DNA from: an uncultured archaeon
Lineage (GTDB): Archaea; Asgardarchaeota; Thorarchaeia; Thorarchaeales; Thorarchaeaceae
NCBI GenBank assembly: GCA_964354495.1
Contig: CAYHAA010000016.1
Location: 21,034 to 53,033, forward strand
Reading direction: 5' to 3'
DNA: 32,000 bases
Part shown: in pieces, positions 243-19,320 of the stretch
Layout: each line of letters starts with the position of its first letter
Numbering within the stretch: position 1 is the first letter of the stretch
Made by a program: the position numbers and the translations under genes
The notes under the pieces: model-generated
The model's input: only the letters and a program-made list of their open reading frames with translations
What the model was told of the DNA's origin: nothing
The model's database searches: none

Positions 243-2450
243 TTACCGCATGGAGTTGAGCAGCGTAAGAAGACTGACCTCCATCTCCTCTGCCTCCTTT
301 CTGAGAGCATGTCTCTGTTCCATGAGACTGAGAAGAATGTGGTTGATGTACTCTAGCTCTTCAAGACAGTTCTCTACTATCCCCGGCATATTATCTTCGC
401 AGACCACCTCATCAATACTGGCGGCAGGAAGTTTGCTCAGTACCTGATTCGCCACAGGTTCAAGCATCTCTGCTCTTGCTCGAATGAGGCCTCGAAGAAC
501 CGTCTTCAGGTCTGAGCGTTTGTCACCGATGGCTCTCATTACCTTCTTTGCATCTTTGACAGGAACACCCAGTATTGATACATTCTCTCCAAGAGGGGTG
601 CACTTGATACTCTTTCCATCACGAGTTATGAGCCCGTCCATCTCAAGTTCACCAAAGACTTCGAGTCCCCGCAACGCCTGCTTGATCACTCCTGCAGCAT
701 ATGCCTTGGTATCGTCCTGCCTCATGGCATACGTTGAGAACTTGACCAAGTGTTTGCAGAGACGGTGCCTCCGAATGTCTTGAAATTTCCAGGACTCACA
801 TGAACATGACACCCCGTCTCGTGATCGCAGCGAAACGTAGTGCCAGATCTCCCTGCTTCCACTGTGAACCAGCCCCTCAATCTTGTCAGGTCTCACTGAG
901 ACAAGTTTCACGCTCTCATCAGGAATCTCATTTGCCCGATTAAATGTGGACTTTGTAGAGCGCATCATCAAGAGAGAGTCCACGGAGGCATCTTCAGGAA
1001 TCTCAATTCCAATCTCCCTCACATTGGTGACTCTGCTGCTACTTCCCCAGAATGTTCGATCGATTACTGAGAACGGGTCATCCCTCTTCTCCTGTTTTCC
1101 ACATAACTGCATGAGAACAAGGTCCTGAATGTTCTCAGCCTCATCCATTTCACTATCGACTTCGCCGTGTATTGGAAGTAGGTTTCCCTCCGCGTCCCTG
1201 TCAAAGTACTTAGCTAGAATCCTGATTCGCTCTTGTTCATTGTTTACGACCACTATGCCAAAAGACTCGTTATCGATTCCTCGCCGTCCAGACGATCCCA
1301 GGACGTCACTTAGTTGCCACTCTGACAGCATCGCGACTGCATCCTCTTGGGACAACTCCTTTCCGAACTTCTGCAAGTATACCCCCATGAGAAAGACCAA
1401 TGATGCATGTAGACCACTTGCAATGGCAAAACGAATTGGCATGACAATTACCGGGAGAAGGCCCTCCTCCCAGGCCTTGGTTATTTCGCGTCTCTGGGAG
1501 GTAGACACGCCCTCATGAAAGAATGCAACTCCCCTCGATATCATCTGGCTCAGTTTCACCGTCATAGTACACTGCGGGTATTTCTTGAGAATCTCCCTTG
1601 CAAGCTGACTCAGATCATCGCGATGCTCAGGAGTCAGTCTCAGGTCCAAGACTGCAGATGTAGGCGTCTGTGCGACACCAGACAATTGACTTGCCATGTC
1701 CTCGCAAGCCTGTATATTCGCGCAAAGTATCATCACTTGCCCACTGCGATAATGAACAAACTCTGTCAGGTCCGCAAGTGAATCATTGATGTCTTCAAAT
1801 GCCTTCACGCTGAAGATTCGTTTCACATCTTCCTTCGCATCTTCTACTATACTGGCCTTCAACCAGTCGCTCAACTCCCTAAGGTTCTCAAGAGGGGGGC
1901 AGATTGCAATGTACTGCACACCCGTCAGTCCTAATAGGGTCACAAGAGACGTCTCCAGCCGCGCCCCTAATTCCGGTTGCCCTATGAGGTCAAGACGGTC
2001 TACTAGAACACAGACCAGGTCCTCCAGAATTGCTGGGTTCACCCTAGATGCAATATCGAAGGACTGGTACGTGGCGACGATGACCCGGCCTGTTCCAGCA
2101 GTCATTCTCGAAGCATTTCGTCTACGGATTATCTGTATTGCTTCTATGCCAAGCCTTCTGCATTTTTGGCTCAAGGACTGGAACCGTTTCTCTGCTTGGT
2201 GTGGGTTCGGGCAGAGGACCAAGGCTCTCGCTATGTGGTCTGATGCAACACGGTTCAGGAGCGAGATCTCTGCGATTGTATATGCCTCATCATAATCATG
2301 AGAGACTAGAATTTGGCTGACTCCTCTGGTCAAGCCCTTGCCGACAGCATCTTTCTGGAAGTCAGTCAGGTTTGCAAGACCCTGCCTTCTCAATACCTCC
2401 AGCAGCCGAGGTGCGACTTGCTGGAGTTCTAGTTCCTTGAGGGTGCTCAG
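243..2450 (-). CDS. Hel308/Ski2-like SF2 helicase homolog, predicted catalytically inactive, with an inserted SWIM zinc-finger domain
   Basis: Colinear with archaeal Hel308/Hjm: Q-motif (LTDFQKDAV), IAEISLL, VIVATY, LIGQPELGARLE, NLRELSDWL, GVAFFHEG, winged-helix TPLG. Motif I reads SHDYDEAY, motif II DRLD, motif III CPP, motif VI DVLGSSGR. SWIM CSCx13CKH lies at 816-750. The track start is TTG 2393, but the frame is open to 2468 and Hel308-like sequence continues upstream, so CTG 2450 is the preferred start. Confidence 0.85.
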   Translation of the reverse strand: MSTLKELELQQVAPRLLEVLRRQGLANLTDFQKDAVGKGLTRGVSQILVSHDYDEAYTIAEISLLNRVASDHIARALVLCPNPHQAEKRFQSLSQKCRRLGIEAIQIIRRRNASRMTAGTGRVIVATYQSFDIASRVNPAILEDLVCVLVDRLDLIGQPELGARLETSLVTLLGLTGVQYIAICPPLENLRELSDWLKASIVEDAKEDVKRIFSVKAFEDINDSLADLTEFVHYRSGQVMILCANIQACEDMASQLSGVAQTPTSAVLDLRLTPEHRDDLSQLAREILKKYPQCTMTVKLSQMISRGVAFFHEGVSTSQRREITKAWEEGLLPVIVMPIRFAIASGLHASLVFLMGVYLQKFGKELSQEDAVAMLSEWQLSDVLGSSGRRGIDNESFGIVVVNNEQERIRILAKYFDRDAEGNLLPIHGEVDSEMDEAENIQDLVLMQLCGKQEKRDDPFSVIDRTFWGSSSRVTNVREIGIEIPEDASVDSLLMMRSTKSTFNRANEIPDESVKLVSVRPDKIEGLVHSGSREIWHYVSLRSRDGVSCSCESWKFQDIRRHRLCKHLVKFSTYAMRQDDTKAYAAGVIKQALRGLEVFGELEMDGLITRDGKSIKCTPLGENVSILGVPVKDAKKVMRAIGDKRSDLKTVLRGLIRARAEMLEPVANQVLSKLPAASIDEVVCEDNMPGIVENCLEELEYINHILLSLMEQRHALRKEAEEMEVSLLTLLNSMR

Positions 2451-2737
2451 ATACTGCCACTCCGTCGTTCATTTGAGCATACTCTAATGCTATGAGGACG
2501 TAGTATCATATCCTATTAGTTTTACGTGTGTTTGGTCCAAATAGCGTTGAGCTGGTCCAAAAATACTCAAAAAGGAGTGCGTGGACGGCATGTCACCTCT
2601 CGCCAAGACTGTGAGCAGGTGGTCTATCTTACGCAGACACATACAAAGTCTCAAAAGCAGCAATCGATAGAACTGATTGAAAAGGCATAATGTAGGGTTT
2701 ATGCAATCCGTCCTTTCATATTGAGGCTTGAATAGTA

Positions 2738-3478
2738 ATGGCTTTTGTAGCTACTACCGACTCGAACTTTCAGATTATCCTGAAGAAGGGATTCAAAGTC
2801 AGACCAGGTTCAACATTCATCTGTGGGTTTCACGGACTTGGCGAAGTGGGTTTTCTGAGCACAGCACATCTGACAAGGACTCTCGAGGCAGAACGTGTGG
2901 GTTTCATAAAGAGCGACATGTTACCGCTCTTTGTGTCGATGGAGGACAAGAAACTGGTCCTGCCGTTCGAGATCTACTCCTATGGACCAAAGAAGATGGT
3001 GTTCTTGGTTCCTCGGTTCCAACCGCATCAGTCAGAGCAGTGGGGCTTTATCGACAAGCTCGCCAAGTGGATTGCAGAGAATGAATTCGAGGAGACCCTT
3101 CTCCTTGGAGGTCTAGATGCCAGCTTCAAGGAGGACGATCAGGAGATGCGTTCTGTTCCAACCTCAGCATACGAGCCCAGACTTGAGAAATGGTCAGTTC
3201 CCCTGCTAGAGGAAGGCCTCTTCGTGGCTGGTCCTCTGGCACTGATACTCGCTGAGCTTGAGATGCTTGACGTACCAGCAATCGGTCTTCTCACATATGC
3301 GACCCGTGGCCGACCCGATCCACGCTCTGCTGCCACCATGCTCGAGAAGATCAACGAGGTGTATGGTCTAGAGGCTAATGTTGAACAGCTGCTAGAGGAG
3401 TCCCGTGAGATTGAGCGCCTCGAGAAGATGCGGAAATCAATAGAATCTTCTGACAGGCCTGGTGACATGTTCGTCTAA
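2738..3478 (+). CDS. PAC2-family (proteasome assembly chaperone, PbaA/PbaB-like) protein
   Basis: 246 aa with GFHGLGEVG, LLLGGL, GPLALIL, PDPRSAA and a C-terminal helix ending MFV, all typical of PAC2. Confidence 0.85.
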   Translation: MAFVATTDSNFQIILKKGFKVRPGSTFICGFHGLGEVGFLSTAHLTRTLEAERVGFIKSDMLPLFVSMEDKKLVLPFEIYSYGPKKMVFLVPRFQPHQSEQWGFIDKLAKWIAENEFEETLLLGGLDASFKEDDQEMRSVPTSAYEPRLEKWSVPLLEEGLFVAGPLALILAELEMLDVPAIGLLTYATRGRPDPRSAATMLEKINEVYGLEANVEQLLEESREIERLEKMRKSIESSDRPGDMFV

Positions 3479-8371: not shown

Positions 8372-11300
8372 TTGAGTGCTGTAACATCGACCCGAAAAAA
8401 GATGGGCTTGACCACGATAGTTGGTTCAATCCTCGTCGTCGCAAGCATAATCTGGGGTCTGTACAGCTTCGTACTGATACAATATGGGGGTGTGAGACCG
8501 TACGAGCCGCATTATGAGTATGACCTCATCGAATACTGGCCATATACGAATAATTTCACAGGCGGCACGACCAATTGGTTTGAAAATCTGAACTATACTG
8601 ATTTCCAGATAGATCAGCCACTCCCTGAAGATATCCTTGACCGGCTTGATGATGTTGTCTTCGTGGTCACCCCAAGAGACCCGGGACATCTCTGGCGTCA
8701 GGAGTCGTATGATTACTATGATGGTGCAGGGTGGTCCAAGACCATCACTGATTCTTTCAGACCCCTCACATCAGAGGAACTCATCCAACCCTCAGCAGCA
8801 ACGAATCCGATCTACACGGTCATCTTCAATGCGCCTGCAGGCGCGGGTGTAGGTTCTATTGAACTCCCCTCCCTCTTCCCGGCAATTCGTGTCATTGATG
8901 GTTCATTCAAGACCTATAGTCTGGTGGATGGTGTCCCTGTTGAAGACATCCCCTCGAGGTTCTTACATCTAGAACTAGCGACGGACGATTACGGGACACT
9001 CTTACTCAATCCACTCATTCAAGGAACTACTGGTGAGCAGGTTCCTGTAAGCTTCGAGCTCACCTTCGTGGACCAAGACATAGACAATGTCATAGCCAAT
9101 GCATTACAGGGGAGTGCAGCTCCTGGTTGGACAGCAATCTACAGACAGCTACCCGCTCTCACACAGAGGGTCATAGACAACATCACTCAATTCTCTTCCG
9201 TTGGAAACGACGCATATGAGAAAGCAATGGCAGTGAAGACATACTTCCAGAGCACCTTCGAGCTCAACATCACTCCAGAGGCACTTGCTGACTACCCACA
9301 GGGCCAAGAGGTGACTGATTGGTTCCTGGAGCGAGGAAACGGTCTTCCCCAGCATTTTGCCACCTCCTACGCCGTCTTCATGCGATATCTTGGAGTTCCT
9401 GCACGGGTAGTGAGTGGCTATGCCTTGGGCGAGCCAGATCCTGTGGAAGACTTCCGTACTGTCATGGTCCGTCATATGACCTTCTGGGTCGAGGTGTACA
9501 TTCCTATGTCCGGCGCCACAGAGGGAGAATGGATTCAGATGATTCCTACCCCTCTTCCTCCTGAGTTTGGAGGTGGCGAGGACCCTATCAATACTCCAAT
9601 ACCTAATATCGAGCTATTAGTATGGCCGAGCAACGGGCTTCAATGGGCTGAGATAGGCACACCCTTCGAGATCAGTGCATCAATGACCGTTGATGGTGTT
9701 CCCATCACGACGCCAGACACTATCATCTTCAATGATGAGACAGACTCTCGATTCGTTGGTACAGCCACTATTGGACAACCTCCCGACCTGCCCATAGCTA
9801 ATGTCACCTATGTCTTTCCTATTGATGCGACAGTGAGCTATCACATCATGTCTGCAACCTGGGCCAATCCTTATTTCTCTGTTATCAATGCGACTGCAAT
9901 CTTTGCCGTAGGAACACCTTCGCCCTCGTTCGATGAACGACAACAAGCGGATGGGTTTGTTACCAGTGAGACCCAAGAACTGAATGTCAGTCAGGGTGTC
10001 GATACCCATGTGGCCTATTGGGAAGATACAGTCCATGTGTTTGGCATCATGACAGTGAATGGAGTTCCTGTAAACAGCTCTCAATACAACAACCGGTACA
10101 TTCAGATTATGTGGGACAACACCATTGTAGGAGATGCCTTCATTGACGAGTACGGATACTACGAGCTTGATGTGACTGTAGATCCTATGGATTTTGCATT
10201 GATGAGGGTTGGTCTCCATGAGGTCTGGTCATGGTACGCAGGTGACTGGGATGGTGAGATACCACGCCTTCTAGAGGCGCGATCCAGTGACAATTCGACA
10301 ATCACAGTCTGGGGGCGAGTTGGATTTGATCTCAGTGTGAGTCCAACAACCACCTCTGCAGGTGCAACCATCTACTATGATGGTGCTATCCGTTTTCTGA
10401 ACGGTTCTCTCCTCCCCACAGGTCAAAACGTCGGTGTGTTCTTTGGGACACAGGCAAACGCAAGCCGACCCCTGAATGCAACAGGTCGTTTTCAGTGGAG
10501 CTACATGATTCCCGTGATTCAGCCTGACGGGACATATTTTGCACGTGCGAACTGGACCAATCCACTGAACTGGCAATACATCGCGGGCAATTGGAGCATC
10601 TCAATCCCAATTGATGTGGGTGCTGGCGGAACCAATCTTTGGGTGAACCCTCTTCCAGACCCGCTGTTCATCGGTCAGGAAATTGTGATCTGGGGATACT
10701 TGACACATGTTGTCAATGGATCTGGTATTGGCCTGAAGCTGGTCGATATCTGGTGGTCTACAGGAGTACCAGTCAATCTCGGTCCGGTCATTACTGCGGG
10801 AGATGGCTACTTCGAGGTAAATTACACGATTCCTGCAGGATACGAGGGCCCAGTGGAATATTGGGCATACTTCAACTCGGTCGATCCTGCGCTTGCAAGC
10901 TCGGAGCTACTTCCTCATCTCTTCTCGAACATAAAGCGCTATGATGTGACAATATCAATTCTGGTCAATCCTGACCCCGTGCGTCTTCTCCAGACGGTAC
11001 GTATTCAAGGGTCTGCAATACTACTTGAGAACGCCAGCTCTCCACTTGCTTTCGTTAGTATCGACATTTGGTGGGGGAACTCGACAGGTGACTACCTTCT
11101 CAACACGGTGTTGACCAACGCGACGGGCGGTTATGTGTTCTACTACCAGATTCCATTAGGTCACAGCATTGAAGTCGTGACTGTCTGGGTCAGTTATACT
11201 TCCCTGTTTTCGAATATTGCAGATGGCGAATCAATCCCCGAACCAGTCTCAATTGAAGCAACTGACACGCTGATTACGGTCAACGAGGACTTCACTACAT

Positions 11301-14164
11301 ATCATCTCAACGAAACCGTGCTTCTCTATGGTAGTCTTCAGTTTGCCAATGGGACTCCTATTGCATTCGAAACCGTGTACATACACTGGGTCAATGCATC
11401 GGGCGCCTTTGTCTTTGAGCGACTCACAGACATCAATGGTAACTACCAGTTCCAGTACAATTTCTCTACAAGCATGTCTGTGGGGATAATCGATGTGCAT
11501 GTGAACTGGACATCTTGGACTCCTCTCTATGCGGATGCCTTTGATACCCTCGTACCAAGCATTGAGGTTGTGAAATACGACCTTGAGATGACCCTGATAG
11601 CACCTGCGCAGATCTATCTTGATGAGGACCTGTTCTTTGAGGGTATCCTATCCTATGCAGGTGGCTCTCCACCATTGATAGGTGAGCTCATTGAGTTGTC
11701 ATATTGGAATGGGACGGATTGGGAGCTGCTAGGCTATCTACCAACGAATTCAACTGGAGGCTTCAACGCCACATTGGGTTTCCCCACGCCCATTGAATAT
11801 ACCTATCAGTTTCGCCTTCTGTATACAGCCACCAACCCACTGAACAACGATGCTGTTGAGTATTTCAGCGTGGAAACTGTGAAGTACACAATTAACCTGG
11901 ACATCACTGTGTCACCGAACCCTGTCATGCAGAATGAGACCATCACAATTCATGCGTATCTCTACTACCAGCATAACGGGACACCGCTAGTCAATGCTGT
12001 CGTGAGTATCTACTGGGATAACGGAACGCTGTTCTTCCTCGGAAATCTCATAACCAATGGAGCTGGACAGGCTGACTTCTACTACTCTGGTATGGACTAC
12101 GACTCAGTGCGAGTCAACATTGAAGTCTACGGGTACTATGCAGGTTCAGTCTATCGAGCCGAGAGAGAATCAATTCACACCATAGTGACACTCGAACAGT
12201 GGCTCACTGAAGTGTACAATGTTGATTCAGATTTGCCTAGGTACGGACTGACTGAAACAGTGATAGTGACTGGAAATCTGCGGTTCGTTCTTCCATCTGT
12301 GCCCTATGCCGGAGTGACCATAGAGCTCCTACTCTCTGGTGTCCCACTTAACGGCACGGTGACCGCATCAGACGGGTCGTTCACACTGTACTGGACCATA
12401 CCTGAGGACACTTCCCCTGATTTCTATGACCTCGTTGTGCGGTTCCAGTCAATGCTTCCATGGATTGCAGGCTCCCAAGCATCCGTTCCGCAGTTTGAGG
12501 TCTATGCGCTTGTTATCATAATCACAGCGAACGTTGACGTGACAACTGTACATCTGGGTGAACAGATCATCTTCTCAGGAACTGCGCAATTCTCGAACAG
12601 CACACCTCTGGACGGGTATGTGATTGAAATCTGGTGGAATGGTGTTCTTCTGAACACAGCAAACGTCACAGCTGGAACCTTTAGCTATGGCTATCTGGTG
12701 CCATACTCCCAGAGTCTAGGTGTCAGGTCAGGATATGCCTTCTTCAATGCTCCAACAGCTGCATTTGTTGATGTCACAGAGTACTTCCCTGACGTGACAG
12801 TCAGAGAGTACATTGACCTCTATCTTGACTCAGAGCCCGTCGTCGACATCTTCACACGAGGCGATACTATCATCGTGACGGGCTATGTCATGAATGATGG
12901 TGCTCTACCAGCAAGTGGGGTGTCGGTTGAGGTACTGGCAGATGGAACGCCCACAGGTTACACTGGAATGACACGTGCAGATGGGACATTTTCAATAAAT
13001 CTCCTCATTCGTTCAGACCAAGCAGTTGGCCTGTATACACTGACCATCGACTCGATTGGCCCCTATCGTGATGTTCTCTCCTCCCCCTCATCATGGACCA
13101 TCTCGGTCTACATGGACTCAGTCGTAGATATTATGACAGTGGGCAGAGCATTGATGCCTGGAGAGTACTTCACCATCAACCTGCAGCTTCATGATGATCA
13201 GGGCAATCCAATCAATGGTGTAACGATTCATGTGTATCTCGATTCTTTTGAGATTGCATCTCCCTACCTAGCAGATGGAAGTGGTCAAGACTTCGACTTG
13301 ACAATACCAATATCTTTGGTAGGAAACGGTGGCCTTTTCGATGTATATGCTGAATTCGCCGGCAGCTCTTTCATCAATGGTCATACTGCGACTGGCCCCC
13401 TAATGCACATCTTCACTGACGTGACCTTCAGGCTGCTTTCTGCCTCGCGTATCGATCCCGGGCAGAGCTTTGTCATAGAGGCTGAAGTCATTGACCCTGA
13501 AGGCAATCCAATCGAGGGAAGAGATGTGCTTCTCAATCTCAATGGGACCCAAGTGATTCCTCTTACAACAGGCTCAGATGGAAGAATATCGTACCCGTCA
13601 TCAGCCTATGCAGATGGTACAACACTCTATTTCACTATCACGCTCGTATCAACAGATGTACCTGATGTAGTATCAGGTCAGTTCACAATTAGAATTCAAA
13701 CTCAAGGTGGTATTATTTTGCAGGGAACGGATCTAATCATAGCAGGAATATTACTAGTAGGTGCAGCTGTCGCCGTCGCGGCGTATCTGTACGTTGTGAA
13801 GGGTATGGGCCGCTCAACGGTCATATCGAGAGGGATTGATATCCCAACAAAGTTACGAAACATCAAGAAGCTCGCTGATGCTGGAAAATATGGTGCGTCC
13901 ATTACCTTGGCGTATCGAACTTTCGAGCAGATGTGCGGTGCGAAAATGGGATCTGAACGGACCCAATCGGAAACCGCCCGTGAGTACCTGAGTCGCGTGC
14001 TCAAGTCTATCCCTCTAGATGGTGCAACTGTTGAGCAGTTTGTTCAGACCTACGAAGAGGCTCGCTTCTCACACCATGAGATGACTCGTGAGCGATACGA
14101 AGCGGCACTTCGCGTCTTCACAGACCTATATCCAAGGATTGACTCTACTGCACCAATGGAATGA
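8372..14164 (+). CDS. Giant membrane-anchored TgpA-like protein: N-terminal TM, inactivated transglutaminase-like core, about 13 Ig-like repeats, C-terminal TM, cytoplasmic DUF4129-like domain
   Basis: 1930 aa with LWRQESYDYYDGAGW and a TGase core (HFATSYAVFMRYLGVPARVVSGY, WVEVY). About 100-aa beta-rich repeats follow, then TM LIIAGILLVGAAVAVAAYLYVV and a DUF4129-like tail (SETAREYL...TYEEARFS). Confidence 0.85.
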   Translation: MSAVTSTRKKMGLTTIVGSILVVASIIWGLYSFVLIQYGGVRPYEPHYEYDLIEYWPYTNNFTGGTTNWFENLNYTDFQIDQPLPEDILDRLDDVVFVVTPRDPGHLWRQESYDYYDGAGWSKTITDSFRPLTSEELIQPSAATNPIYTVIFNAPAGAGVGSIELPSLFPAIRVIDGSFKTYSLVDGVPVEDIPSRFLHLELATDDYGTLLLNPLIQGTTGEQVPVSFELTFVDQDIDNVIANALQGSAAPGWTAIYRQLPALTQRVIDNITQFSSVGNDAYEKAMAVKTYFQSTFELNITPEALADYPQGQEVTDWFLERGNGLPQHFATSYAVFMRYLGVPARVVSGYALGEPDPVEDFRTVMVRHMTFWVEVYIPMSGATEGEWIQMIPTPLPPEFGGGEDPINTPIPNIELLVWPSNGLQWAEIGTPFEISASMTVDGVPITTPDTIIFNDETDSRFVGTATIGQPPDLPIANVTYVFPIDATVSYHIMSATWANPYFSVINATAIFAVGTPSPSFDERQQADGFVTSETQELNVSQGVDTHVAYWEDTVHVFGIMTVNGVPVNSSQYNNRYIQIMWDNTIVGDAFIDEYGYYELDVTVDPMDFALMRVGLHEVWSWYAGDWDGEIPRLLEARSSDNSTITVWGRVGFDLSVSPTTTSAGATIYYDGAIRFLNGSLLPTGQNVGVFFGTQANASRPLNATGRFQWSYMIPVIQPDGTYFARANWTNPLNWQYIAGNWSISIPIDVGAGGTNLWVNPLPDPLFIGQEIVIWGYLTHVVNGSGIGLKLVDIWWSTGVPVNLGPVITAGDGYFEVNYTIPAGYEGPVEYWAYFNSVDPALASSELLPHLFSNIKRYDVTISILVNPDPVRLLQTVRIQGSAILLENASSPLAFVSIDIWWGNSTGDYLLNTVLTNATGGYVFYYQIPLGHSIEVVTVWVSYTSLFSNIADGESIPEPVSIEATDTLITVNEDFTTYHLNETVLLYGSLQFANGTPIAFETVYIHWVNASGAFVFERLTDINGNYQFQYNFSTSMSVGIIDVHVNWTSWTPLYADAFDTLVPSIEVVKYDLEMTLIAPAQIYLDEDLFFEGILSYAGGSPPLIGELIELSYWNGTDWELLGYLPTNSTGGFNATLGFPTPIEYTYQFRLLYTATNPLNNDAVEYFSVETVKYTINLDITVSPNPVMQNETITIHAYLYYQHNGTPLVNAVVSIYWDNGTLFFLGNLITNGAGQADFYYSGMDYDSVRVNIEVYGYYAGSVYRAERESIHTIVTLEQWLTEVYNVDSDLPRYGLTETVIVTGNLRFVLPSVPYAGVTIELLLSGVPLNGTVTASDGSFTLYWTIPEDTSPDFYDLVVRFQSMLPWIAGSQASVPQFEVYALVIIITANVDVTTVHLGEQIIFSGTAQFSNSTPLDGYVIEIWWNGVLLNTANVTAGTFSYGYLVPYSQSLGVRSGYAFFNAPTAAFVDVTEYFPDVTVREYIDLYLDSEPVVDIFTRGDTIIVTGYVMNDGALPASGVSVEVLADGTPTGYTGMTRADGTFSINLLIRSDQAVGLYTLTIDSIGPYRDVLSSPSSWTISVYMDSVVDIMTVGRALMPGEYFTINLQLHDDQGNPINGVTIHVYLDSFEIASPYLADGSGQDFDLTIPISLVGNGGLFDVYAEFAGSSFINGHTATGPLMHIFTDVTFRLLSASRIDPGQSFVIEAEVIDPEGNPIEGRDVLLNLNGTQVIPLTTGSDGRISYPSSAYADGTTLYFTITLVSTDVPDVVSGQFTIRIQTQGGIILQGTDLIIAGILLVGAAVAVAAYLYVVKGMGRSTVISRGIDIPTKLRNIKKLADAGKYGASITLAYRTFEQMCGAKMGSERTQSETAREYLSRVLKSIPLDGATVEQFVQTYEEARFSHHEMTRERYEAALRVFTDLYPRIDSTAPME

Positions 14165-14177
14165 ATAACAAGGAGAA

Positions 14178-15590
14178 ATGCTGATGGGCTGGAAAGAGAT
14201 CCTCCAAGTCACCCTCTTCCTCATGACATGGGTTCCAGTGACAGTACTGGCAGGGTACACTCTCATAGGTCTACAGCCTGCCTACACCCATGACTTCTCC
14301 ATTTACAACGAGGAATGGAACGGTCTTAGTGAGTACCGAGGTGCGATTGAGGACACTGGCCGCCCTGTGTACTCTATCCAAGCCTCGATGAGCGTGGTCA
14401 CAAGGGAGAATGGATCTGCTGTGCTTGTTATCATGGGCCCAGTTCGAGACTTCAGTCTTGATGTGACGGCGGCAGTCTATCTTCACCTACTGGCTGGAGG
14501 GGGTGTTCTCATAGCTGATGATTTTGGATCTGCAAACAACTCCCTAGCTATTCTCAATGCGCTTATGACACAGCTTCTCCCAGGGCAGCTCCCTCAAGGT
14601 GTTTCAGCGTTTCTCTCTTTCACTGGGGGAGTGTTACTTGACTTGGATTCCTATGACCCTGCAAAGGAACCGCGACTTCCTATAATCAGAGACTTCCATA
14701 GTCCCCTAGGTGCTGATCAGGGCTTTCTCACTTCTGGAGTGAATGAGCTCCACCTTAATTGGGCCACCGCAATCAGCCCATATACTCTGCTTGGACTAGG
14801 TGGAATTGCGTGGTGCACTCCCCGGTCCTGGTGCGAAACCAACATCACCGATCCAAGTCCTGAGCCTAACCCGGGTGAGTGGAATGGCAGCCTTCCCGTT
14901 GCTGGTGCGCTTGATTTCTCCTCCCCTCAAAATCCAAACGGTGGTCGGCTGGTTGCAGTGAGTGATCCGAGTATTTTCAATAATGACATGTACGGCAGAT
15001 TCCCTGACAACCAAAGATTCGGTGCGAACATCATAGAGTGGCTATCTCATTCTAATGCTTCAGAACCAGTCCTATTCTGTGAGGAACTTCTTGCAGTACC
15101 ATGGAACAGTGCGGAGTTCTCATTTGGCCTGTATCTCAGTCGAGCCCTATGGTTGTCAACCTTCCCGTTGGTTTCTGCTCTATACCCGCTTATGACCGCG
15201 ATTGGTATGAAGAAATACCTGCCAGAGTTGAAGAAGCCTGAAGTAAAGAGTGTATCAGATGTCTTTCTCAGAAGAGGACAGACATACTTCAGCGAGCGTA
15301 TGACATTCTACAGAACTGAAGGCAATTATGCTAGAGTCGTGAAGATGCTTCATCGTAAGCTGAAACGAGGGCTTAGGAAGCAACAGCAGATGACCGAGTA
15401 CAGCTCGGCAGCTCTTTGGGATCTGATGCGCTATAAAGACTCCAAACTGCGGGAAGGAGAGTTCTTGGCCACTCTAGGGCGAATAGAAGAGATTGCAGCT
15501 GATCCGAATATGAAGATAAAGGAGAGCGAGATGATGGGGCTCTTCTTCTTTATGCGTAATATCCAATCATTGCTAATTGACACCAGATAA
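14178..15590 (+). CDS. DUF4350-like membrane-anchored protein
   Basis: N-terminal TM, then FSIYNEEWNGLSEY, GGGVLIADDFG and GRLVAVSDPSIFNNDM, a second TM and a helical cytoplasmic tail. This family is commonly found next to MoxR/DUF58. The start may be ATG 14184. Confidence 0.7.
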   Translation: MLMGWKEILQVTLFLMTWVPVTVLAGYTLIGLQPAYTHDFSIYNEEWNGLSEYRGAIEDTGRPVYSIQASMSVVTRENGSAVLVIMGPVRDFSLDVTAAVYLHLLAGGGVLIADDFGSANNSLAILNALMTQLLPGQLPQGVSAFLSFTGGVLLDLDSYDPAKEPRLPIIRDFHSPLGADQGFLTSGVNELHLNWATAISPYTLLGLGGIAWCTPRSWCETNITDPSPEPNPGEWNGSLPVAGALDFSSPQNPNGGRLVAVSDPSIFNNDMYGRFPDNQRFGANIIEWLSHSNASEPVLFCEELLAVPWNSAEFSFGLYLSRALWLSTFPLVSALYPLMTAIGMKKYLPELKKPEVKSVSDVFLRRGQTYFSERMTFYRTEGNYARVVKMLHRKLKRGLRKQQQMTEYSSAALWDLMRYKDSKLREGEFLATLGRIEEIAADPNMKIKESEMMGLFFFMRNIQSLLIDTR

Positions 15591-15607
15591 ATCAGAGGTA
15601 AAGGAAA

Positions 15608-16597
15608 TTGACAACAGAAGAACCGAATGAGATCCCGATTGTCGAGACAACCGCAACGATGAGTATCGATGAGGTTCGCAGTACGACCTCGGAGATCATT
15701 CGCGAATGCAACCGAATCATAGTTGGCAAGAATGAGATACTGCAGAATGTTCTCATTGCCATGCTGGCCAACGGACATGTAATACTTGAAGGAGTTCCCG
15801 GGCTTGCTAAGACTTACATGGCACGTACTTTCGCATCAATCCTAGGATGTGCCTTCAAGAGAATACAACTGACTGTAGACACGCTCCCTGCAGACCTGCT
15901 TGGAAGCAACGTGTTCAATCAACGAACAGGAGAGTTCTGGTTCCGTAAGGGTCCCGTGTTTGCCAACTTTGTGTTAGCTGACGAGATTAACAGATGCCCA
16001 CCAAAGTCACAGAGCGCACTGCTTGAAGTGATGGAGGAACGCCAAGTCTCAATTGAAGGTGTGACGAGAAAGCTGCCACGCCCATTCTTGATTGTGGCAA
16101 CCCAGAATCCAGTGGAGCAAGAGGGCACTTATCCACTGCCTGAGGCGCAGCTCGATAGGTTCATGTTCCGCCTGATATTGGACTATCCCACTGATGAGGA
16201 AGAGGCTGAGGTCATCCGGCGGAAGCATCTTGGTGAGGCTACAGAGCTCAGGGTTCTCGCTGACCCCTCACTCATGGTTCGTATGCAAAATACATGTCAG
16301 ACTGTCTTCATCGAAGAGGATATCATCAATTACATCCGAGACATTGTTGTCCGAACCCGGAATGACCCGCAAATCCTACTCGGTGGGTCGCCCAGAGCCT
16401 CGCTTGTCCTGATGAGTGCCTCTAAGGCACGAGCTGCAATGCTTGGTCGTGACTTTGTGATCCCTGAGGACATACGAAAACTGTCAGTTGAGACACTGAA
16501 CCACCGGCTCGTTCTCAAACCAGAGGCCGAGCTCGAAGGGCTATCCGTAGAACGGATTGTGACAAAGATACTCGGCGAGGTAGACTGTCCTCGCTAG
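15608..16597 (+). CDS. moxR: MoxR-family AAA+ ATPase
   Basis: Walker A GVPGLAKT, Walker B LADEINR, ATQNPVEQEGTYPLPEAQLDRF and GGSPRA. Confidence 0.95.
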   Translation: MTTEEPNEIPIVETTATMSIDEVRSTTSEIIRECNRIIVGKNEILQNVLIAMLANGHVILEGVPGLAKTYMARTFASILGCAFKRIQLTVDTLPADLLGSNVFNQRTGEFWFRKGPVFANFVLADEINRCPPKSQSALLEVMEERQVSIEGVTRKLPRPFLIVATQNPVEQEGTYPLPEAQLDRFMFRLILDYPTDEEEAEVIRRKHLGEATELRVLADPSLMVRMQNTCQTVFIEEDIINYIRDIVVRTRNDPQILLGGSPRASLVLMSASKARAAMLGRDFVIPEDIRKLSVETLNHRLVLKPEAELEGLSVERIVTKILGEVDCPR

Positions 16598-16615
16598 CAA
16601 CGGAGACGATAATCT

Positions 16616-17938
16616 GTGATCACCCAGAGGGGCTTTGTAGTAGTATTCGCGGGAGTCCTCCTGCTAACAAGTGGATTCTCCTTTGTCAATTTCTACTTCA
16701 TTCTGCTGGGTGCCTATCTTCTGATTGGACTTGTTGTGACATTGCCCCTCTTTGCTCTCACAGCGAATCTTGCTGGTATCGAAGTCGACCGCCAAATCGA
16801 CAAAGTAAAAGTGTTCTCGGGAGATTTCCTGCGAATTCGTGTCACCATCAAGAACATCTCCAGACGCCATTTTGACTTCATTGAAGTGCATGATCAGTAT
16901 CCTGAGACATGGATTCTCGCAATAGGAGAGAACTTCATTGCATCACGTATCGAGCCTGGCAGCAGTATCACCTTCTCGTATATCCTTCAGGCGAGGATGC
17001 GTGGCCGCTACTTCATTGGCCCCACGGAGGTAGTAATGCGAGATCGGCTTGGGCTCCATTACTATTCACGAACACTCAAGGCTCACACCGAAGTCCTTGT
17101 CTATCCTACATGGAAGGACGTGCGCCGAATGGAGGCTCTTGGCAAGCAGCGCCAGCTCGGACTCATGTTCGGAGCACACAGAACAAAGACCGTCGGAATG
17201 GGGTCTGACTTTGTGGGTTTCAGGGATTACACGCCCGGTGACGAGTTCAGGCTTATCGACTGGAAGACCAGTGCGAAACGCGGCGATATGGTGATCAAGC
17301 AGTTCGAGATGGAGAAGAATATCCAAGTCATCTGCATGTTGGACACAAGCGGAAGCATGGGAAATGGCTATCCAGAGAACACGAAACTGGAATACGCCAT
17401 CAGGGCTGCAGTACTTCTGACGCACATGGGCCTTGAGAGAAAAGACCTCATTGGGACGTGCGTGTTCAGTGACATAGTTCACAGCTATGTTCCTCCTGGA
17501 GTAACCCCTAATCACATGTATAGTGTCCTTGAGGCGTTGGCTGGTGCTGAACCGACGGGTTGGAGCGATTACGAGACTGCGATAGAGTACGTTGTGAAAC
17601 AGACAAAGAAACGGTCACTCATCATCTGGCTGACTGATCTTGAGGAGAGTCCGGCTCCACTCCTCAACGCAATGAAGGCGCTAGTGGCCAATGGTCACAA
17701 AGCCATGGTGATTAGCCCATTTGGCCCTTGGTTCGAGGCACCGGTTGGTCAGTTCGGACCCGTAGAAAAGGTGCTCTCTGAGGCAGTTTCTGAGGAGCTC
17801 TGGGAGAGAAGGGCCAAGATTGCTCAGGCGTTGGCTCGATTCAGTATTGAGGTCATCAATGTTGGCCCAGAGGACTTTCTGCCGACTATCATCAAGACCT
17901 ATGAGCATGCAAAACAGAAGGGGGTGGCAATGTTTTGA
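16616..17938 (+). CDS. DUF58 / von Willebrand A domain protein (MoxR partner) with N-terminal TM helices
   Basis: DFVGFRDYTPGDEFRLIDWKTSAK (DUF58), MIDAS-like DTSGS and WLTDL, with an Ig-like segment (GRYFIGP...DRLGL) before them. Confidence 0.92.
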   Translation: MITQRGFVVVFAGVLLLTSGFSFVNFYFILLGAYLLIGLVVTLPLFALTANLAGIEVDRQIDKVKVFSGDFLRIRVTIKNISRRHFDFIEVHDQYPETWILAIGENFIASRIEPGSSITFSYILQARMRGRYFIGPTEVVMRDRLGLHYYSRTLKAHTEVLVYPTWKDVRRMEALGKQRQLGLMFGAHRTKTVGMGSDFVGFRDYTPGDEFRLIDWKTSAKRGDMVIKQFEMEKNIQVICMLDTSGSMGNGYPENTKLEYAIRAAVLLTHMGLERKDLIGTCVFSDIVHSYVPPGVTPNHMYSVLEALAGAEPTGWSDYETAIEYVVKQTKKRSLIIWLTDLEESPAPLLNAMKALVANGHKAMVISPFGPWFEAPVGQFGPVEKVLSEAVSEELWERRAKIAQALARFSIEVINVGPEDFLPTIIKTYEHAKQKGVAMF

Positions 17939-19320
17939 GAGTCGTCACTTGGATTCTCCGGATTGCCTCGATTGCCACGTTTGCAGGCATGGCGTATCTT
18001 GTGTACAGTCTACTTGACTCCAATGACATCTGGCACTGGGCGGCTCCCTACGATTTTGTTGTAACTGTATTTCGTTTACTATCACTGCTCATCTTCTTCT
18101 TTACAAGTACTATGATCAGTGGACTCGCAGCTGCTCTCTCTGGTACTCTTCCAAACGATATCATAGTGGGTCTCTACAACGTCATTGTTCTTCGGTCGTG
18201 GTACATGCAACCATATGGTGTGGATGACCCGATGACCAATCTGGGACAAGTATGGGCTTCGTTCCAATCCAATCTTGCTCAAGTCCTTGCAGCTCTCTGG
18301 GATAATACCTTCCTCTTCTTGTATTTTCTATTTGCAGGAATTGGTATTGCACTCTTTCTGCAGTCTCTCTTCAGAATGGACCACAAGTTCGTCGGTGGTG
18401 CATTCATATCAATTCAGTCAATTCTGATTCTTGCTGCTTACAAGTTGCTGACGGTTCCCAATCTTGACCCATTTCCAACGGATTTTGTGGTCTTTCTAAG
18501 CGCGAATGCTCAACTTCTGGCACTAGTTTCCTTTGCCTATCTGGAGGTCAGTTACCAAATGATCTACAGCTACTCGGTTGGTAAACCCATTGAGGATCGA
18601 GAAGAGACCCTCAAGAAGCAGCTGCTGGCCCTCAGACAGGCAACAAGAAAGCAGGATGCCATCGAGAGAGGCGAGAAGGTAAGCATAACGGGCATGAGCC
18701 GTACGTCAGGATTGATTGCCTTCTCATTCCTACGAGAAGCAATCGAACGAAAGGTTGTTGGCACGCAGGATGCACTTGAGAATCTTGACGCAATCTCTGA
18801 TGTGCGGCGTCTCCAGATATTTGTTGATGAATTGCTTCAATCAGATTCGAAAGCAAAGGATGAGCTCACTGCGAAGGCAGCATCGCCATCATCGTTCTAT
18901 GTAATCGGGTCGGCGATAACCGGTTCTGCAATCAGATTTCTGAGTATCATTGCGATTGCATTCATTCTACTCAATCCCAGCGCGCTCATGATTCTACTCA
19001 ACTTGCCGCAGGGAATTGAGCACAGTATCGAGATACTCCAACCAGAGATAATACTGCTCTTTCTTGTCCCGATTATCCTTGCATTTCCATTTGTTTCGAT
19101 GATTATTACTTGGTTTTCAAAGAGGGAAGTTGAGGAAACAGAGGAACTCACCAACGAAGAGAAGGAAGCGGAACGACAGCGGAAGAAGGAGTCTGCTCGA
19201 CGTCGAAAGGAGGCAGCGAAGGCTCGAAAAGCTAGGGCAGAGGCAAGAAAGAAGCGGAAGGGCCATGAGATTGAAGTTGACGAGTGGGACAAAGCCTTGG
19301 AAGATAGCTATCGACGGTAG
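17935..19320 (+). CDS. Uncharacterised polytopic membrane protein with a large charged cytoplasmic loop and a K/R/E-rich C-terminal tail
   Basis: 461-aa ORF with about 7-8 hydrophobic segments. Its TTG start overlaps the DUF58 stop (TTGA), which indicates translational coupling. No family recognised. Confidence 0.75.
   Translation: MRVVTWILRIASIATFAGMAYLVYSLLDSNDIWHWAAPYDFVVTVFRLLSLLIFFFTSTMISGLAAALSGTLPNDIIVGLYNVIVLRSWYMQPYGVDDPMTNLGQVWASFQSNLAQVLAALWDNTFLFLYFLFAGIGIALFLQSLFRMDHKFVGGAFISIQSILILAAYKLLTVPNLDPFPTDFVVFLSANAQLLALVSFAYLEVSYQMIYSYSVGKPIEDREETLKKQLLALRQATRKQDAIERGEKVSITGMSRTSGLIAFSFLREAIERKVVGTQDALENLDAISDVRRLQIFVDELLQSDSKAKDELTAKAASPSSFYVIGSAITGSAIRFLSIIAIAFILLNPSALMILLNLPQGIEHSIEILQPEIILLFLVPIILAFPFVSMIITWFSKREVEETEELTNEEKEAERQRKKESARRRKEAAKARKARAEARKKRKGHEIEVDEWDKALEDSYRR

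Follow-up and report, generated by a model that had tools for sequence, protein, structure and literature searches.

What keeps the reading frame of a helicase gene open once the motifs of its motor have been replaced? The question is raised by a gene in a 32,000-nucleotide stretch of DNA from an uncultured archaeon of the family Thorarchaeaceae (Asgardarchaeota; assembly GCA_964354495.1, contig CAYHAA010000016.1, positions 21,034 to 53,033 of the forward strand). We refer to this whole stretch as the window, and all positions below are counted from its first letter. A first-pass annotation, made from the letters alone, described the gene as an intact, full-length Hel308/Ski2 paralog with every ATPase/helicase motif erased, and proposed a retained, non-catalytic role for its product. 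The frame is indeed open from end to end:

243..2450, minus strand: pseudo-helicase coding sequence; 735 codons, from CTG at 2450-2448, the position of the start codon in orthologs, to the TAA stop at 245-243.

Our analysis identifies the product as a real and conserved Hel308-type protein that is kept by selection and, as read from its sequence, is catalytically dead.

A Hel308-type protein by sequence and fold

The NCBIfam Hel308 models (NF040935 and NF002654) match residues 1-450 of the protein with E-values of 7e-27 to 4e-19; the scores, 68-94 bits, are below the curated equivalog cut-offs of 887-1216. Among structures in the Protein Data Bank (PDB), a profile of 14 orthologs finds Pyrococcus furiosus Hjm (2zj2, E 7e-22), Hel308 (2va8 and 2p6r) and the helicase domains of Brr2 and Pol theta. 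An AlphaFold2 (AF2) model built from a 42-sequence alignment has a mean pLDDT of 85 and a pTM of 0.83. Foldseek matches this model to Hjm/Hel308 over its whole length (E 4e-25, TM-score 0.68-0.75), and VIA aligns 576 residues with Hjm 2zj2 (Z 34.7, 3.1 Å; model residues 2-735 on chain residues 1-658). The likeness to archaeal Hel308/Hjm that was first noticed in the letters is borne out, well beyond chance, by the NCBIfam models, the PDB profile and the predicted structure alike. In the AF2 model the four-domain Hel308 ring is retained: RecA1, RecA2, a winged helix that carries a SWIM insert, and the ratchet domain. The HhH domain 5 is missing; the protein stops at the end of the ratchet domain and has no HHH match in Pfam, in contrast to the canonical copy in the same genome, which has one.

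Pfam finds no family above threshold in the window protein. SWIM, Helicase_C and ResIII fall short of their thresholds (for Helicase_C, 14 bits against a threshold of 23.5), DEAD gives no match, and an atlas search returned generic DEAD/Helicase_C clusters only.

State of the helicase motifs

Motif states were read from a profile alignment of the 14 orthologs to P. furiosus Hjm (2zj2), together with alignments to motif-intact relatives. Against 2zj2, PTASGKT pairs with (T)YDYDEAY, DEIH with DRLD, SAT with CPP, and QMLGRAGRP with DVLGaaGRRG. In the window copy the corresponding positions are as follows.

2355..2369, minus strand: Q-motif region, LTDFQ; Gln32 is retained and is invariant in 42/42 aligned family members.
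2280..2303, minus strand: former Walker A (motif I), SHDYDEAY, residues 50-57; Glu55 at the Lys position and Ala56 at the Thr position.
2184..2213, minus strand: former motif Ia, CPNPHQAEKR, where active relatives have VPLRALAxEK; LCPNP.Q is invariant in orthologs.
2118..2132, minus strand: IIRRR, a patch in place of the motif Ib TGD of active relatives; its arginines vary little or not at all.
1974..2000, minus strand: former motif II, DRLD-LIGQP, where active relatives have DEIH; RLDLIG is invariant.
1893..1901, minus strand: former motif III, CPP in place of SAT; both prolines are invariant.
1401..1442, minus strand: former motif V region, MPIRFAIASGLHAS, where active relatives have TTTLxAGxNxPAR; the motif is unrecognisable.
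1257..1325, minus strand: former motif VI region, SEWQLSDVLGSSGRRGIDNESFG, where active relatives have QILGRAGRPGYD.
339..389, minus strand: ratchet-helix equivalent, MPGIVENCLEELEYINH; Tyr at the Trp position and Asn at the Arg position.

The first-pass annotation had placed SHDYDEAY at 2303-2280 and DRLD at 2000-1989, and both coordinates are exact; its reading of SAT as CPP, of motif V as gone and of motif VI as DVLGSSGR agrees with the alignment to Hjm 2zj2. Only its claim that every motif was erased goes too far. Walker A, DExH, SAT and motif V are lost, but Gln32, parts of motifs Ic and IV (TYQSFD..R and GVAFFHEG) and Arg389 are kept. In former motif II (DRLD, residues 151-154, 2000..1989), Arg152 takes the position of the catalytic Glu and Asp154 that of the His. 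In motif VI (DVLGSSGRRG) the first Arg has become Ser, the second (R389) is retained, and the Pro that follows has become Arg. Neither GK[ST] nor the motif II catalytic acid was found in any Thorarchaeial (Thor) ortholog.

The loss is not peculiar to the window copy. It is common to all orthologs examined, and the residues that replace the motifs are themselves fixed: D52, E55, LCPNP.Q, RR, RLDLIG.P, PP and GR.G do not vary among the 14 orthologs, even at 56% identity. Nowhere in the protein is conservation stricter in this set than in the cleft. The ratchet-helix equivalent is also conserved, and is acidic.

Distribution and selection

How widely is the protein kept, and how tightly is it constrained? 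A sequence search returned more than 120 orthologs with 56-96% identity, most of them 733-741 amino acids long; the records that carry a name are mostly Thorarchaeota metagenome-assembled genomes. The gene is present in 83/87 genomes of the window's order, with no match that contains an internal stop, and in 82 of the 85 genomes of the window's own family. The single genome of the order's other family gave no match at E 1e-60.

We estimated the ratio of nonsynonymous to synonymous substitution rates (dN/dS) by NG86. Most ortholog pairs are saturated at synonymous sites, and the 25 least saturated pairs were therefore used; these give values of 0.056-0.111, with low ratios throughout (RecA1, RecA2, SWIM region and C-terminus). 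In matched genome pairs, dN/dS is 0.07-0.125 for the pseudo-helicase, 0.09-0.12 for canonical Hel308 and 0.056-0.062 for an active SWIM-bearing paralog. The ratio is thus well below 1, which was one of the checks proposed in the first-pass annotation, and at 0.06-0.12 it is on par with that of canonical Hel308 in the same genomes. The window copy has three private changes at otherwise invariant columns; other copies have 0-13. Selection on this gene is as strong as on the genuine DNA-repair helicase Hel308, and its role would therefore be one that needs no motor. The proposal of a retained non-catalytic protein is supported by the shared motif loss, the 83/87 distribution, the dN/dS values and the presence of a separate canonical Hel308 in the genome, described below.

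A predicted SWIM zinc finger in the winged-helix domain

The largest departure from the Hel308 plan is an insert in the winged-helix domain.

636..998, minus strand: winged-helix insert of ~120 residues (485-605) with a SWIM finger; four beta-strands, then helices.
806-804 (C549), 800-798 (C551), 758-756 (C565) and 752-750 (H567), minus strand: SWIM ligands, located by reading-frame count.

The four residues of the CxC..CxH signature are invariant in 42/42 sequences. The Pfam SWIM model (PF04434) scores the window copy at 14.6-17.8 bits, against a gathering cut-off of 19.6, and matches 26 of 31 excised family modules, with a best E-value of 1.5e-7. Modelled alone, the module has a pLDDT of 89. 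In module numbering, C65 lies on the last of the four strands, C67 in the following turn and helix, and C81 and H83 at the beginning of helix 82-93. Compared with 48,161 solved chains, the module model is closest to ZSWIM8 (Z 7.7, 102 residues) and then to Shu2 (Z 3.8), both of which are SWIM proteins. Signature and predicted fold both fit, and we regard the insert as a predicted SWIM zinc finger. Invariant K, R and H residues occur in the SWIM/winged-helix unit, which is basic (isoelectric point, pI, 8.6-9.5); dead and active proteins cannot be told apart by overall charge or pI.

Active relatives in the same genome

The source genome (51 contigs, 97.7% complete) contains the separate canonical Hel308 for which the first-pass annotation had proposed a check. 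This protein, on contig C6, has 755 amino acids, all motifs, and Pfam matches to DEAD, Helicase_C, HTH_61, Helicase_dom4_arc and HHH_5. A second relative, on contig C1, is a 730-amino-acid paralog that carries the CxC..CxH insert together with intact SPTGSGKT, DEIQ, SAT, TTTLAAG and HQMLGRAGRP. Its gene (C1:645078-647267) overlaps by four bases the end of an upstream open reading frame (ORF) of 487 amino acids; the ORF matches no Pfam or PADLOC family and contains a degenerate-looking P-loop-like sequence, GGAAESR.

Does the pseudo-helicase depend on this closest active paralog? Full-length and C-terminal-half searches did not find the paralog in four genomes that keep the pseudo-helicase; these genomes are 85-93% complete and two are of one genus, and a control genome gave a match. 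Obligate pairing of the two proteins is unlikely because of these four genomes. Of the candidate roles in the first-pass annotation, which were a scaffold, a DNA-structure sensor, a regulator of an active Hel308 and phosphate mimicry by the acidic P-loop, one is weakened by this result.

Origin and partly decayed relatives

Where did such a protein come from? An exhaustive search of representative sequences returned, below the Thor orthologs, a second tier of proteins of ~700-790 amino acids that align through the SWIM region with 20-25% identity. Most of these are motif-intact; where they carry a name, the label is Jord-, Baldr- or Asgardarchaeia. Partial decay is seen in a small number: P0131 (Hod/Promethearchaeota), P0132 (Ranarchaeia), P0133 and P0141 (both Odinarchaeia), P0142 and P0146. 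The Walker A region is lost or lacking in P0142 and P0146, whereas the other partly decayed proteins keep Walker A. Motif II reads DETY, DDAQ, EECD or DEFQ in this group, SAT is lost and motif VI is damaged.

In a maximum-likelihood tree the Thor proteins form a clade (SH-aLRT 100) on a long stem (1.78), nested in a clade (100) that consists of exactly these decayed proteins; the intact SWIM helicases and canonical Hel308 fall outside it. Because decayed sequences might attract each other, the tree was rebuilt from the C-terminal, non-ATPase half alone, and the grouping of Thor with the decayed proteins was kept with a support of 82-90. Both trees come from quick searches with SH-aLRT support only, contain several long branches and are of heterogeneous composition. 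Outside the motifs, CxCE.W[KR]F and IPD..V are signatures common to the Thor and decayed proteins. There are few intermediates, and for P0131 no more than two close relatives exist among 5.8 billion clusters.

The gene neighbourhoods retain traces of a shared arrangement. A divergent PAC2 gene upstream, with beta-CASP RNase and TruD genes downstream, is found both at a 54%-identical Thor locus and at the Ranarchaeia locus; ATP-grasp_2/CoA-ligase genes lie downstream at Thor loci and at one of two Odin loci; and a PALP gene lies upstream at Thor and Hod loci. We read these as remnants of one ancestral gene order across Asgard classes. Insertions are seen as well, with succinyl-CoA ligase genes in Thor loci and aconitase/ATP-citrate-lyase-like genes in Odin. 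The grouping of Thor with the Hod, Odin and Ran proteins, the SWIM signature and the gene-order remnants therefore suggest that the motifs were lost stepwise, with the Hod, Odin and Ran proteins as apparent intermediates.

Start codon and upstream signals

Where does translation begin? The ORF listing gives TTG at 2393-2391 as the first canonical start, which would yield 716 amino acids, and the stop-to-stop frame extends to 2468. Hel308 homology already begins upstream of TTG 2393. At 30 ortholog loci the start lies 19 codons before this TTG; the codon is TTG at 25 loci and GTG at 5, and often has a stop directly before it. The end coordinate of 2450 given by the first-pass annotation is the orthologous start, because the ortholog loci start at that codon. 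The window copy has CTG there (2450-2448), with the ribosome-binding motif upstream retained, and begins either at CTG 2450 or at TTG 2393. The latter start would drop 19 residues, and with them two N-terminal helices of the AF2 model. The uniformly weak start codons across the family may mean low-level translation. Two conserved signals lie upstream.

2457..2463, minus strand: Shine-Dalgarno-like GGAGTGG, 6 nt before the start position of orthologs; GGAG(T/C)(G/A)G in genus-level orthologs, GGGGTAG or similar in the next genus.
2511..2523, minus strand: AAAACTAATAGGA element, near-identical in 28 aligned ortholog loci from two genera.

We infer that the AAAACTAATAGGA element is a candidate archaeal BRE/TATA-like promoter. 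Between it and the ribosome-binding site is a three-codon mini-ORF (2469-2480, minus strand); its sequence is ATGCTCAAATGA in the window copy and ATGCGCATTTGA at most loci of its genus, and it is kept within that genus but not in the next. Among assembled metatranscriptome contigs, one from a wetland covers 2238-2458 with 2 differences in 221 positions, a weak hint of transcription given that RNA libraries can contain DNA.

What might a helicase without a motor do?

Our preferred reading is that this dead member of the Asgard SWIM-bearing Hel308-like lineage serves as a fixed-conformation, ATP-independent binding module; we give it a probability of roughly 55%. Lacking the P-loop Lys, the catalytic Glu and motif III, the protein would not be expected to bind ATP canonically or to couple hydrolysis to movement. 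The charges in the cleft appear to have been swapped, from Lys to Glu in the P-loop and from Glu to Arg in motif II. Acidic D52, D54 and E55, opposite R152 and the retained R389 and R390, would probably bridge the RecA lobes in place of Mg-ATP, and the bridged lobes would hold a rigid ring in one conformation that no longer cycles. The IRRR patch and the basic face of the SWIM/winged-helix unit, with its invariant K..RRHR.CKH..K, could then hold a nucleic-acid structure or a partner protein, and the pseudo-helicase would act as an adaptor or competitor alongside the motor-competent Hel308-type helicases of the same cell.

Several observations weigh against a binding module of this kind. Residues that in Hel308 contact single-stranded DNA have been replaced too: motif Ia has lost its Arg and motif V its threonines, and the ratchet has Asn for Arg and Tyr for Trp. 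Given these replacements and the acidic ratchet helix, canonical threading of a strand is doubtful. Any binding of nucleic acid would need another surface, more likely the SWIM/winged-helix face with the IRRR patch. The retained Q-motif Gln leaves some room for a nucleotide-related contact. Lastly, the neighbouring genes give no functional lead in the loci read, and we use them as evidence of positional orthology only.

Could the protein instead be a regulatory subunit that acts in trans on an active Hel308-type helicase, equivalent to the inactive C-terminal cassette of Brr2 but encoded separately? The inactive Brr2 cassette stimulates the active one and serves as an interaction platform. Two motor-competent relatives, the canonical Hel308 on C6 and the SWIM paralog on C1, are at hand in the genome, and the AF2 model superposes on the C-terminal cassette of Brr2 (chain residues ~1306-2059) no less well than on the N-terminal one (Z 27-28). 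However, the gene was never beside a helicase gene in the loci read, and the four genomes (85-93% complete) in which the closest active paralog was not found also speak against it. We consider a regulatory subunit possible but unlikely.

It is quite improbable that the SWIM finger is the whole point, that is, that the protein is a SWIM-mediated protein adaptor whose dead helicase body is a scaffold only. In structure the excised module is closest to ZSWIM8 (Z 7.7) and then to Shu2 of the Shu1:Shu2 complex (Z 3.8), and in both of these the SWIM region is involved in contacts with other proteins. By analogy, a partner of such an adaptor could conceivably be a RadA-family recombinase paralog, as for Shu2/SWS1, or a substrate, as for ZSWIM8. 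A KaiC/RadC-type ATPase gene lies two genes away from the pseudo-helicase homolog in one Odinarchaeia locus, and a review (PMC13623763) describes the binding of RAD51 paralogs by HELQ, the Hel308 of animals. Against this, the Shu2 match is weak, and no RadC-like neighbour was seen at Thor, Hod or Ran loci or at the second Odin locus, whose contig stops one gene upstream.

A more specific scenario combines elements of these proposals. The Thor protein would be an Asgard stand-alone equivalent of the dead Brr2 cassette, a motor converted stepwise, from Hod/Odin/Ran to Thor, into a nucleotide-free regulatory adaptor; its SWIM finger would serve as the docking site for a recombinase paralog or for an active Hel308-type helicase, and recombination or RNA processing would be controlled without ATP. 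We regard the scenario as a whole as unlikely.

Does the rebuilt cleft still bind or hydrolyse a nucleotide? The cleft is where conservation is strictest, it retains the Q-motif Gln, which in superfamily 2 (SF2) helicases reads adenine, and one motif VI Arg, and Walker A is still intact in partly decayed relatives; an NTPase or a nucleotide- or ligand-binding switch with a non-canonical site could account for this. The lack of GK[ST] and of a motif II catalytic acid in every Thor ortholog, an acidic P-loop that would repel phosphate, and Pfam DEAD and Helicase_C results below threshold make either of these very improbable.

A Hel308 that only anneals DNA was also considered. ATPase-null HELQ still anneals naked DNA, and annealing has been assigned to domain 5 (PMC13623763). 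The idea was not adopted, since the pseudo-helicase lacks this domain.

That the gene is a decaying pseudogene still open by chance, as the CTG at a conserved TTG/GTG start in the window and the loss of all catalytic motifs might suggest, is almost certainly wrong and is already refuted at the family level by open frames in 83/87 genomes, by a dN/dS equal to that of canonical Hel308, by invariant replacement residues, by a window copy without excess private substitutions, and by the conserved promoter-like element and ribosome-binding site.

Gene neighbours

The neighbours are of mixed housekeeping character: PAC2, a Nip7-like PUA protein, RsmB/F, succinyl-CoA ligase, beta-CASP RNase and TruD. 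The PAC2-family gene (proteasome assembly chaperone 2 homolog; 2738-3478, plus strand) is divergent from the pseudo-helicase and is the more conserved of the two, with 80-94% identity across loci where the pseudo-helicase has 54-81%. A complex prediction of the pseudo-helicase with PAC2 (246 amino acids) scored 0.00, "no answer", which counts neither for nor against an interaction. A defence function like that of Hachiman HamB was rejected: PADLOC gave only generic, weak SF2 matches (E 1e-4 to 3e-5), and no HamA-like neighbour is present. Elsewhere in the window, a likely operon (8372-19320, plus strand) encodes a 1930-amino-acid transglutaminase-core/DUF4129 protein with Ig-like repeats, a DUF4350 protein, a MoxR-type AAA_3 ATPase, a DUF58/VWA protein and a 461-amino-acid protein without a family.

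Comparison with known systems

Archaeal Hel308/Hjm (COG1204; 2zj2, 2va8, 2p6r) has the same RecA1-RecA2-winged helix-ratchet architecture over the whole length. The pseudo-helicase differs in that all ATP-binding and coupling motifs are replaced, a SWIM insert of ~120 residues is present, domain 5 is absent, and the ratchet Trp and Arg are replaced. The motif-intact Asgard SWIM helicases (for example the C1 paralog and the Jord-, Baldr- and Asgardarchaeia proteins) share its length and the position of the SWIM insert and mostly lack domain 5. Unlike the pseudo-helicase, they keep SPSGSGKT, DEIH/DEIQ, SAT, TTTLxAG and QxLGRAGRP, match Pfam DEAD and Helicase_C, and form a clade separate from the decayed lineage. 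The partly decayed relatives P0131, P0133, P0141 and P0132 group with the Thor proteins in both trees and share the SWIM signature, the IPD..V strand and the gene-order remnants, but have an intact Walker A and a partly kept motif II, and are 20-24% identical to the window protein.

Outside the archaea, the C-terminal cassette of Brr2 is likewise a Hel308-type cassette kept without helicase activity, and it can be superposed on the model (Z ~27-28). The Brr2 cassette retains ATP binding, is joined in cis to an active cassette and has a Sec63 unit. In contrast, the Thor protein has a gene to itself and no lysine in the P-loop, and a SWIM insert takes the place of the Sec63 unit. Pseudoenzymes that keep a motor fold without the motor are well known in eukaryotes, from the second cassette of Brr2 and Utp25 to pseudokinases. 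To our knowledge, they are hardly documented in archaea. Utp25/Def, a pseudohelicase of the eukaryotic small-subunit processome (PMC9539457), resembles the Thor protein in having an SF2 helicase fold with degenerate motifs and a non-enzymatic role; it is eukaryotic, is of DEAD-box rather than Ski2/Hel308-type origin, and has an unrelated domain make-up.

The literature searched contains no description of a SWIM-bearing Hel308-like helicase, nor of a dead form of one. A 2024 survey of archaeal Ski2-like helicases, which covered 75 Asgard genomes including 27 of Thorarchaeota, does not mention SWIM (PMC10946056). A protein that escapes every Pfam model would, we suspect, also be overlooked by a survey based on domains. 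The parent group, in which a Hel308-like helicase carries its SWIM finger within the winged-helix domain, seems not to have been described before.

Significance

This analysis adds a dN/dS control with matched genes, intermediates with positional orthology, a phyletic argument against obligate pairing, and the start-codon change in the window copy. The pseudo-helicase is also a test case for annotation, with no Pfam family at cut-off and the label "hypothetical protein" in the public records that name it. The parent group enlarges the helicase repertoire of the archaea closest to eukaryotes. Its partly decayed members appear to hold intermediate stages, and would thus form a natural series from helicase to adaptor in which the order of motif loss can be followed. 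The family is of clear interest for the evolution of helicases in Asgard archaea.

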